From a virus: a stretch of 43,119 bases of DNA. The notes beneath the pieces were generated by a model, which made no database searches, had not been told where the DNA came from, and saw nothing but the letters and a program-made list of their open reading frames with translations. The translations under genes and the position numbers were made by a program. Of this stretch, positions 41,950 to 42,480 are shown in pieces (the stretch's first letter is position 1; every line of letters begins with the position of its first letter). The stretch lies in the UHGV virus genome UHGV-0017337. One strand, 5' to 3'.

Positions 41950-42480
41950 ATTTTACAGCTAATACAATGTTAGTATTAATTTTACAGTTAATGCACAACA
42001 TGCACTAATTTTCGACCACATACATAAATACGTAGCCGATAATCACTGTGATTTCAAATACTTGCATAAAAACATAGATTACAATAGGTATCTCCCAGAC
42101 TTTTATTTTAGCTCTGTTTACAGCTAATACACTATATGCACTATCTCTATATTTCTATACTACTTCTTATTTATATCTATGTTTTCTATGTTATCTATAA
42201 AAAGATAATAAAAAGAATAAGATAGAGAGGGGTTGGTTAAAAAGTAAACATGACGAAATCTATGTTAAGTATAACTTTAATGCACAACATGCACTATATA
42301 ATTCACAACGTGCATTAGCTGTACCAACATAGATACACAACGTGCACTAACAGCTAATACACAACGTGCATCTTGCACTAACTGCTAAAGCACAACATGC
42401 ACTAACAGATAATACACTAACATATAAAGCACATCTTGCACTAGCTGCTAACGCGCGTTATGATTTATCCGTGGTCAAAC
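41950..42480. promoter_or_regulatory. AT-rich divergent control region with at least 7 iteron-like repeats (ACAAC[A/G]TGCACT; tandem half-sites ATGCAC/GTGCAC), AGCTAATACA motifs and dispersed repeat copy B
   Basis: Direct reading of repeats at ~41985, 42130, 42280, 42303, 42338, 42360, 42390, 42428; between small terminase (leftward) and HTH gene (rightward). Confidence 0.5.
42155..42264. repeat. Dispersed repeat copy B (70-bp core ~42195-42264 near-identical to ~24499-24568)
   Basis: Direct comparison of the two loci. Confidence 0.7.

Follow-up and report, generated by a model that had tools for sequence, protein, structure and literature searches.

A lineage-specific dyad array and a conserved AT-rich element at two loci of a 9NA/Sasha-like phage genome: candidate replication origin or operator region

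SaPI-type elements start replication at iterons flanking an AT-rich stretch, and origins made of two separate loci are known from SPP1 and P4. Here we analyze a region of comparable layout in a stretch of 43,119 nucleotides of viral DNA, the genome record UHGV-0017337 (the window, whose positions are counted from its first letter). The region is the gap of 611 bp (41885-42495; 33.1% GC vs 43.3% for the window) between the leftward small terminase gene, terS, and a rightward gene for a helix-turn-helix (HTH) protein. It carries nine copies of a 19-bp dyad on both sides of an AT-rich element, and the dyad and the element recur together at a second locus, 17.7 kb away and beside the head operon. 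We argue that the dyads are probably read by the HTH protein and tentatively prefer a role in the initiation of replication over one in transcription.

The window is ~96% identical to Escherichia phage KarinMuster_Bas82 (Bas82), whose complete 58.5-kb genome we used for whole-genome comparison, and it holds about three quarters of a Bas82/Sasha-type genome. Both of its ends fall inside perfect tandem repeats, which suggests that they are contig or assembly breaks at such repeats. The Sashavirus phages Sasha, Sergei and Solent are close relatives and are themselves related to Salmonella phage 9NA. The 9NA/Sasha/Carvaje group consists of virulent siphophages infecting Salmonella, E. coli and Klebsiella, which have been isolated for biocontrol and are represented in the BASEL collection (PMC11990801). 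Its type phage, 9NA, is virulent, with no lysogeny genes reported (PMC4153490). Packaging in 9NA-like phages is described as pac-directed and headful (PMC4153490, and the abstract of Zeng et al. 2019 as given through PMC8954984), and one pac fragment was reported for 9NA (PMC4153490). Zeng et al. 2019 (J Virol 93:e00848-19) aside, we found no statement on the terS/HTH-gene region in the papers that we read.

Dyads and an AT-rich element at two loci

A preliminary description of positions 41950-42480 had listed at least seven copies of a ACAACRTGCACT-type iteron, several AGCTAATACA motifs and one copy of a dispersed repeat. These elements are present where it placed them, far above chance, and the figure of seven is fair when diverged copies are counted. 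ACAACRTGCACT occurs in four exact copies and one with a single mismatch, all between 41995 and 42403 (0.72 expected; five copies reached in 0 of 100 shuffles). AGCTAATACA has three exact and two one-mismatch copies in the gap region and three more exact copies at 24595-24667, and reaches 15 in the window at up to one mismatch, against 2.4 expected. The anatomy proposed for the repeats, tandem ATGCAC/GTGCAC half-sites, is wrong: the unit that repeats, TAATRCA-N5-TGYAYTA, is an imperfect dyad of 19 bp, often lengthened to ACAGC...GCTGT, and the iterons and motifs correspond to its centre and its right and left arms. At up to two mismatches, the dyad is found at 11 places in the window, nine of them in the gap and two at 24583 and 24646, with none elsewhere. 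This corresponds to 21 strand-matches against 3.3 expected, a number reached in none of 100 shuffles, and a first-order Markov simulation of the gap (2000 runs) produced a mean of 0.15 and a maximum of three dyads where nine are observed. The Bas82 genome has dyads at the same two loci, plus one stray match with two mismatches elsewhere.

Three of the nine dyads lie left of the AT-rich element. Site 1 (TAATACAATGTTAGTATTA, 41960-41978) has one mismatch to the consensus, whereas site 2 (TAATGCACAACATGCACTA, 41989-42007) and site 3 (TAATACACTATATGCACTA, 42125-42143, with the left flank TTTACAGC) are exact matches. The remaining six form the right-hand array on the plus strand (42278-42443; starts at 42278, 42299, 42331, 42355, 42386 and 42425), where they share a common orientation (centre CAACR) and follow each other at centre-to-centre distances of 21, 32, 24, 31 and 39 bp. 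Iteron origins are expected to have at least three to four sites of about 17-22 bp placed two to three helical turns apart, and this array does. Its size is not constant: 42371-42433, a segment of 63 bp that amounts to exactly two repeats, is missing from two metagenomic relatives, and since the deletion is bounded by a repeated GCATCTTGCACTA, at 42367 and 42430, the array changes in size by unequal recombination. In four of the dyads (41989, 42278, 42299 and 42355), the left arm and centre read TAATNCACA, which agrees with the DnaA box TTATNCACA at eight of nine positions; this likeness is probably a by-product of the repeat sequence.

The AT-rich element between the two groups of dyads (copy B, 42165-42264, 24% GC) is 90% identical over 100 nt to 24469-24568 (copy A, 22% GC), which separates the divergent head operon from an early gene cassette, so that the dispersed repeat noticed earlier is real. 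Copy B contains three tandem 9-mers at 42174-42200, TATCTATGT TTTCTATGT TATCTATAA, followed by A-tracts, and Tandem Repeats Finder reports the 9-bp period; the three 9-mers are present in both copies. By nearest-neighbour energies, the least stable 100-bp segments of the sequence are 42124-42223 and 24451-24550, about 5 standard deviations (sd) from the mean: the two elements have values of -102.4 and -105.3 kcal/mol, the next segment has -116.5, and the mean is -134.2 (sd 6.4). They are also the two least stable 60-bp segments and hold ranks 1 and 2 in Bas82 at the 100-bp scale. Moreover, the element is the sole part of the gap that still aligns (75-80%) with 9NA, SP069 and nine Klebsiella phage records, the copy detected by blastn in 9NA and the Klebsiella phages being the one beside the head operon. 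In 9NA and Carvaje, it occupies the equivalent divergent gap upstream of the head operon, and more diverged copies are found upstream of terS in 9NA, Carvaje and metagenomic relatives. Interspersed near the element are ATCTATR motifs, which are kept between lineages; all seven exact ATCTATG heptamers of the window lie in the two gaps, in both orientations, and their clustering is above chance, although their total is not. An adjacent AT-rich element of low stability with short tandem repeats is a further mark of iteron origins that this region shares. We consider it a candidate DNA-unwinding or DNA-bending element.

The preliminary description had overlooked that dyads and element recur together at 24.5 kb. 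Here, two perfect dyads, TAATACACGTTCTGTATTA (24583-24601) and TAATACAGAACGTGTATTA (24646-24664), accompany copy A, and the distance from the right edge of the AT-rich element to the next dyad is 14-15 bp at either locus. The locus is bracketed by a divergent pair of consensus early-type promoters (24371-24714), the leftward one with its UP element and -35 at 24385-24371 and the rightward one, TTTAAAATAATTCTTGACG-17-TATCTT, at 24673-24714. The dyad at 24646-24664, which is contained in AGCTAATACA-N5-TGTATTAGCT, ends 8 bp before the UP element of the promoter at 24673, and in three lineages the proximal dyad of this locus lies 4-13 bp upstream of the early-promoter UP element. In 9NA, the corresponding position holds two dyads of that phage's own type. 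A single clear dyad is seen in Carvaje, along with a further, possibly non-palindromic CTTACCAG repeat.

The neighbouring HTH protein and its sites

The gene to the right of the array starts with the ATG at 42496 on the plus strand and runs off the window at 43119, leaving a 5' part of 208 codons that belongs to phrog_25538. From the N terminus, it encodes a Cro/C1-type HTH (42496-42675), then, behind a linker, a conserved central domain and the beginning of the VEAPVAR repeats (43051-43119). In the relatives, it is a lone gene of 251-321 codons toward which the next genes converge, and the record of Sasha has a terminator after it. Alignment divides the protein into four parts: a variable N-domain of about 58 residues, a linker followed by a central domain of about 100 residues, the VEAPVAR repeats, and a C-terminal module of about 45 residues. 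The central domain is duplicated in the Klebsiella phages, and the VEAPVAR repeats are a part of the Sasha-group proteins, in variable number; the C-terminal module is conserved. Searches of Pfam, NCBIfam and PDB sequences returned nothing significant, and the PHROGs family, phrog_25538, is listed as of unknown function. The family is small, with 10 matches among 5.8 billion clustered proteins and 13 among 1.8 billion representatives. Full-length homologs came from a 9NA-like genome in every case whose context we examined, and scans of IMG/VR (seven loci) and of metagenomes (three loci) yielded known types and no new lineage.

The protein had been called a YdaS/Cro-type HTH. The Cro part of that label holds by structure: the N-domain adopts a compact four- to five-helix Cro/C1 fold with the HTH in helices 2-3, and its top structural matches are, without exception, repressors, antitoxins or Aca regulators. 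The YdaS part is not supported, as neither the window protein nor its relatives matched PF15943 at E values up to 5. Pfam HTH_3 scores the N-domain below its cutoff (E=0.19; 12.3 bits, cutoff 23) and gave no match with the full-length proteins. The family profile matches proteins with multiple HTH_3 domains at E ~5e-5, and hhalign aligned it to their HTH_3 repeats over the recognition helix at E=4.8e-6. The AlphaFold2 model of the full-length protein is poor outside the N-domain (predicted local distance difference test score of 62), and its Foldseek matches are not significant. We also considered the central domain as a second HTH copy, for which hhalign gave E=7.5e-4 against the N-domain; the idea failed against the HTH_3 repeats (E=0.38). 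In one 9NA-like contig (ERR12350071, at 4001-4890 of our L027), the gene is called as two overlapping open reading frames (ORFs), one for a 69-aa HTH protein and one for the 227-aa remainder; the HTH head may be made there as a separate polypeptide, or the split may reflect a frameshift or a sequencing error.

To identify the likely reader of the dyads, we compared lineages. Every relative that we examined has the gene next to the array, with both divergent from terS, yet the sequence of the dyad differs: the Sasha type is TAATRC-N7-GYAYTA, the 9NA type is ATAACAC-N3-GTGTTAT (at least six copies) and the Carvaje type is based on CTTACCAG. In the genomes with both loci read (9NA, Carvaje, BDX09P1 and the window), the same dyad family is present at both. 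Between lineages, the HTH domain is 30-41% identical, against 86-90% for TerS (88-89% over residues 1-75) and 91% for a ParB-like protein. TerS and the ParB-like protein were accordingly rejected as readers, as each is conserved while the dyads vary. The dyads vary with the HTH domain, which makes the neighbouring protein the likely reader: three dyad families match three HTH-domain types, a feature common to switch pairs and to initiator/iteron pairs, and the size of the dyad is that expected for an HTH dimer. A natural exchange is seen in the Sashavirus BDX09P1, where a second subtype, TAAYMCTRT-N-AYAGKRTTA, has taken over the right array jointly with a replacement of the HTH domain. That phage agrees with the window at left sites 1-2, in the AT-rich element and at the second locus, and its site-3 position holds the other dyad subtype. 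The recognition helices of the window protein and the BDX09P1 protein are near-identical (TVGRYNQ and SVGRYNE), and the outer half-site TAAYAC is common to both subtypes. From covariation and adjacency, we consider it likely that the array is the binding region of the neighbouring HTH protein.

Stand-alone homologs of the N-domain (P0020 and P0022-P0025; 85-102 aa) occur in metagenomic contigs of IncP-like plasmids, upstream of parA-korB-korA. The two contigs with enough upstream sequence (L028 at 1206-1638 and L030 at 1-269) have an oriV-like region 300-450 bp before the gene, with at least seven to 11 direct 21-nt iterons (CGGTAGGTTTACCACACGCAA) placed 22-32 bp apart and an exact DnaA box, TTATCCACA. 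We take this association with a plasmid oriV as a lead in favor of an origin.

terS, promoters and genome context

The left boundary of the control region is terS (41249-41884, minus strand), a single-gene leftward unit. Its ORF spans 41249-41944, and the actual start is the ATG at 41884 (MKISD...). The product matches PHROG 51, 'terminase small subunit', at E=7.5e-12 and weakly matches Pfam Terminase_2, and the gene is annotated as terS in Bas82. Upstream of it, at 41919-41941, lies a block conserved in sequence across all lineages (GACAACCCGTGGGTATCTGTG in the minus-strand reading), which is kept in 9NA and in two further sequences of our set (L010 and L012) and is more diverged in Carvaje. 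The block resembles ACCCGTGnTAAACT and, on that likeness, is a possible extended -10-type promoter for terS. We found no strong sigma-70 promoter on the terS side of the gap, where the best position weight matrix (PWM) score is 7.4; a weak leftward promoter-like match, TTAATA-18-TAAAAT, overlaps dyad site 1. For the HTH gene, the top rightward candidate in the gap is a sigma-70 promoter, TTGCAC-17-TATGAT, at 42436-42464 on the plus strand. It scores PWM 9.7, which is rank 42 in the window (control early promoters, 11.7-14.7), and its -35 lies inside the last dyad (42425).

The early promoters form a conserved family, TTTAAAATAATTCTTGAC-N17-(-10), which combines an UP element with a consensus -35 and has the highest scores of the window (PWM 11.7-14.7). 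Members are found on the plus strand at 14482, 24673, 28534, 29676, 32772, 36426, 38102 and 40691, with a diverged copy at 31875, and on the minus strand at 24385-24371, where the promoter heads the leftward head operon; the others head small rightward cassettes that interrupt the virion genes. None lies in the gap at 41885-42495. The extended -10-like sequence ACCCGTGnTAAACT is found exactly only twice in the window, on the minus strand at 36407, upstream of terL, and at 14464, upstream of the tail/tape-measure operon, and in weaker versions at 41919-41941 (terS) and around 24330 (head operon). It sits upstream of late operons, where it and the UP element of an early promoter stand back to back in divergent directions, and may be a late promoter class of 9NA/Sasha-like phages.

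Beside the second locus, the early promoter at 24.68 kb precedes a hydrophobic ORF of 22 codons (24747-24815, MIYYILAFMIFAAPVIVGIVRG) and then a plus-strand gene at 24819-25367, whose 182-aa product is a coiled-coil protein without a family match. By annotation, the Bas82 cassette at this place appears different, in that its first annotated gene encodes a 127-aa hypothetical protein. Elsewhere in the window, two paralogous plus-strand genes, 14735-15838 and 31913-32788, follow early promoters and have internal repeats at 14745-15514 and 31920-32470. Each encodes several zinc-finger-like repeats of 60-65 aa (DUF723/DUF4379) and a T5orf172/MUG113 (GIY-YIG-like) nuclease domain, and both are probably homing-endonuclease-type genes. 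Perfect tandem repeats occur at three places: 1-77 (30-bp unit), 24071-24140 (21 bp) and 43051-43119 (21 bp). The one at 24071 is in frame within the first head-operon gene, the one at 43051 encodes the VEAPVAR of the HTH protein, and the one at the window edge was assigned to a Gp2.5-like gene by coordinate mapping to Bas82 alone. Their copy number differs among relatives, and a 282-bp repeat region is annotated in the HTH gene of Sasha. A search of 41800-42600 against Rfam returned eukaryotic microRNA and small nucleolar RNA noise below threshold, which does not indicate an RNA element.

Origin or switch, and comparison with known systems

The preliminary description had proposed that the region is either an origin or a regulatory switch. 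The premise shared by both, that the array is a recognition region, stands by inference, and there is evidence for each of the two functions. Our tentative preference is for an initiator-type replication origin with autoregulation. The anatomy of the sequence, its conservation, the HTH fold and the minima of helix stability are observed directly, and from them one can speculate on origin function, recruitment and autoregulation as follows. Dimers of the HTH protein would read the lineage-specific dyads through their N-terminal Cro/C1-type HTH, coating the dyads on both flanks of the AT-rich element, six close-set ones on the right and three on the left, and the bound protein would stress or open the element. 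The phage primase-helicase might then be recruited through the tethered C-terminal part of the HTH protein, while HTH protein on the dyad of its own promoter would limit its own synthesis. The element and its ATCTATR motifs would presumably be read by a conserved factor, be it the primase-helicase, the central domain of the HTH protein or a host protein, and the 24.5-kb locus would serve as a second origin or as a cis-acting partner site. Several observations count for this reading: the dyads adjoin the two least stable segments, the right array is dense and of one orientation, tandem 9-mers are present, the array varies in copy number and has been swapped as one block with the HTH domain, and the protein combines a DNA-binding head with flexible repeat linkers and a small conserved C-terminal module. 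The primase region of the phage primase-helicase has PDB chain 7ola_A ('DNA primase', E=2.8e-34) as its best PDB sequence match, a structure we take to be the SaPI5 primase-helicase (Pri-Rep), and the protein matches the NrS-1 polymerase HBD, D5_N and DUF5906 in Pfam.

A number of points weigh against an origin. XRE-type HTH domains belong overwhelmingly to transcription factors, and known phage initiators usually have winged-helix domains. No homology to any known initiator of the Rep, O or TrfA type was found in Pfam, NCBIfam, PHROGs or PDB sequences, and the plasmid case concerns one family, in which Rep is probably encoded by another gene, of 347 aa, and not by that of the small HTH protein. 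The exact DnaA box TTATNCACA and the IHF consensus WATCAANNNNTTR are absent from both loci. Among nine sequences that are 93-97% identical, half-sites and spacers vary to a similar degree (10.3% vs 13.8%, p=0.35); these close relatives have diverged too little for selection on the dyads to be demonstrable. The GC/AT skew, suggested earlier as a way to locate the origin, gave no usable signal: the GC skew at third codon positions is flat over the 64 Bas82 genes of at least 300 nt, with coding-strand values of 0.074 for plus-strand and 0.036 for minus-strand genes (sd 0.12-0.15) and no trend with position. In addition, the extreme AT-richness could serve bending and not melting, and dyads are also placed where a repressor would act, that is, at the protein's own -35, at leaders or ribosome-binding sites (RBSs) in 9NA and Carvaje, and at the UP element of the second locus.

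This placement leads to the view that the region is a pure transcriptional switch, which is possible, if on the doubtful side. The HTH protein would be an early Cro-like repressor or dual regulator acting cooperatively across the divergent terS/HTH-gene region, where it would shut its own promoter, time terS and control the early promoter or the head operon at 24.6 kb, with the AT-rich element as a bend, hinge or host architectural-protein site linking the left and right operator groups. The Cro/C1-type fold and its structural matches to repressors, antitoxins and Aca regulators fit such a role, as do the overlap of the last dyad with the -35 of the best candidate promoter and, in 9NA and Carvaje, the outermost dyads on the leader or RBS, abutting the translation starts, of both terS and the HTH gene. 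The proximal second-locus dyad, at its 4-13 bp from the UP element, could act on the early promoter in the three lineages, terS is an isolated late gene without a strong sigma-70 promoter and needs its own control, and the stand-alone homologs head an operon of the parA-korB-korA 'central control' type in plasmids. However, nine operators, six of them within 165 bp, exceed what autoregulation needs, and the dyads keep no fixed place with respect to the terS promoter: in the window they are at about -55, whereas 9NA and Carvaje have them within the leader. A simple hinge would not call for an element whose sequence is retained across three genera and which, at both loci, marks the global minimum of stability. 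Dyads are found at one of at least nine consensus early promoters only, and the extra conserved domains and linkers of the protein are left unexplained. A bistable switch of the CI/Cro type would need a second regulator where the divergent neighbour is terS, and 9NA lacks lysogeny genes (PMC4153490). A role as late-gene activator was rejected, as none of the dyads precedes terL, portal or the tail operon.

The remaining readings concern other nucleoprotein complexes. A packaging (pac) region, modelled on lambda cosB or SPP1 pacL, is improbable in our judgment. TerS would assemble on the ATCTATR repeats, the AT-rich bent DNA and the block at 41919-41941, with the HTH protein as an accessory specificity or timing factor. 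The location directly upstream of terS, with invariant synteny, would suit this, as would motifs that are kept between lineages along with the highly conserved DNA-binding region of TerS (88-89% identity). The AT-rich element is also where several deposited genomes have been opened, perhaps by mere convention. The headful strategy described for 9NA-like phages also agrees with it (PMC4153490, and PMC8954984 for the abstract-level account). Nevertheless, dyads that are unrelated between lineages with near-identical TerS are not TerS sites, and both element types are present at two loci while 9NA has one reported pac fragment (PMC4153490). Highly improbable, finally, is some other role, such as a centromere-like or anchoring array that pairs the two loci, a decoy or anti-defence function, or slippage repeats without function. 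An array beside an autoregulated gene for a small DNA-binding protein does resemble centromeres of the parC/ParR type, and both the unequal-crossover polymorphism of the array and the richness of this genome in tandem repeats would be in keeping with such ideas. On the other hand, no partner ATPase adjoins the HTH gene, the ParB-like protein is conserved while the dyads vary, and a virulent phage without lysogeny genes such as 9NA (PMC4153490) has no obvious need of plasmid-like partition. The strict confinement to two loci, the symmetry of the dyads, the architecture kept in four lineages and the covariation with the HTH domain rule out an absence of function.

A bolder form of the preferred origin reading, which we regard as rather unlikely, is that 9NA/Sasha-like phages start replication with an unrecognised kind of initiator, phrog_25538, whose swappable XRE head would act on lineage-specific dyad 'iterons' while conserved parts of the machinery work on a twice-present, conserved 100-bp unwinding element. 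The result would be a dual or bipartite origin, placed at each locus between divergently transcribed units. In that case, array and HTH head would form an exchangeable replication-specificity module, like the immunity modules of lambdoid phages. Zeng et al. 2019 aside, three aspects appear to be new: the predicted assignment of phrog_25538 to a 19-bp site, the two-locus architecture with a conserved unwinding-type element, and the natural specificity swap in BDX09P1. Together, they offer a testable handle on the lifestyle of the group, made up of one orphan protein, one 19-bp site, two loci and an unwinding element. If the region is an origin, it would locate replication starts in these phages and widen the range of known types by an initiator with an XRE head and an origin split over two loci. 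As a switch, it would identify the regulator that times terS, and hence packaging, in a phage without another obvious late-gene regulator. Under either reading, BDX09P1, with its array and HTH domain exchanged, provides a specificity experiment that nature has already set up.

How does the region compare with systems of known function? The lambda ori with its O protein (the 'O-some') has, like this locus, several 19-bp dyad sites in one orientation beside an AT-rich stretch, in an origin linked to the initiator gene, and the O dimer, in which a flexible linker joins the DNA-binding N-terminal domain to a C-terminal part that recruits partners, is organised much as we propose for the HTH protein. 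In contrast, lambda has four iterons inside gene O, whereas nine are present here, on both sides of the element and outside the gene, with a second locus; O has no detectable similarity to the HTH protein, and this phage, with a primase-helicase of its own, has no obvious need of a P/DnaB-type loader. Iteron plasmids such as RK2 (oriV/TrfA) and pPS10 (RepA) share sites of about 20 bp that are two to three turns apart, an AT-rich element with short tandem repeats, an adjacent binder gene autoregulated through a promoter site (as proposed here), and covariation of sites with the DNA-binding domain. In these plasmids, however, monomers carrying two winged-helix domains bind iterons that are direct repeats without symmetry, while the sites here are dyads for an XRE-type protein, with no exact DnaA box; a counterpart to the two domains would be the possible second HTH-like domain, for which hhalign provides weak support (E=7.5e-4). 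SPP1 oriL/oriR with G38P and P4 ori/crr with the alpha protein likewise place short repeats and an AT-rich segment at two distant loci under one phage protein, and a large primase-helicase is encoded by P4 and by this phage group too. Their binders are proven initiators, whereas ours is predicted, and here two site families are interleaved, one lineage-specific and one conserved. The SaPI Pri/Rep origins have repeats on both sides of an AT-rich core and are also linked to this phage through the best PDB match of its primase-helicase, 7ola_A, but SaPI iterons are recognised by the helicase and sit in an origin immediately 3' of rep. In this phage, the lineage-specific sites vary with a separate HTH protein, and both loci are distant from the primase gene.

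Among regulatory regions, lambda OR/OL (CI/Cro), Mu O1-O3 (IHF) and phi29 p4/p6 resemble the locus in having a divergent HTH gene, multiple dyad operators and a second cluster elsewhere. A bendable AT-rich segment between operator groups and the exchange of operator and domain as a mosaic, 'immunity-like' block are further shared features. They differ in that here there is no partner repressor, lysogeny functions are lacking (PMC4153490), nine sites are unusually many, and the intervening element is conserved across genera and is the global melting minimum. The region thus works like known initiator/iteron or repressor/operator modules and is not a new kind of system.

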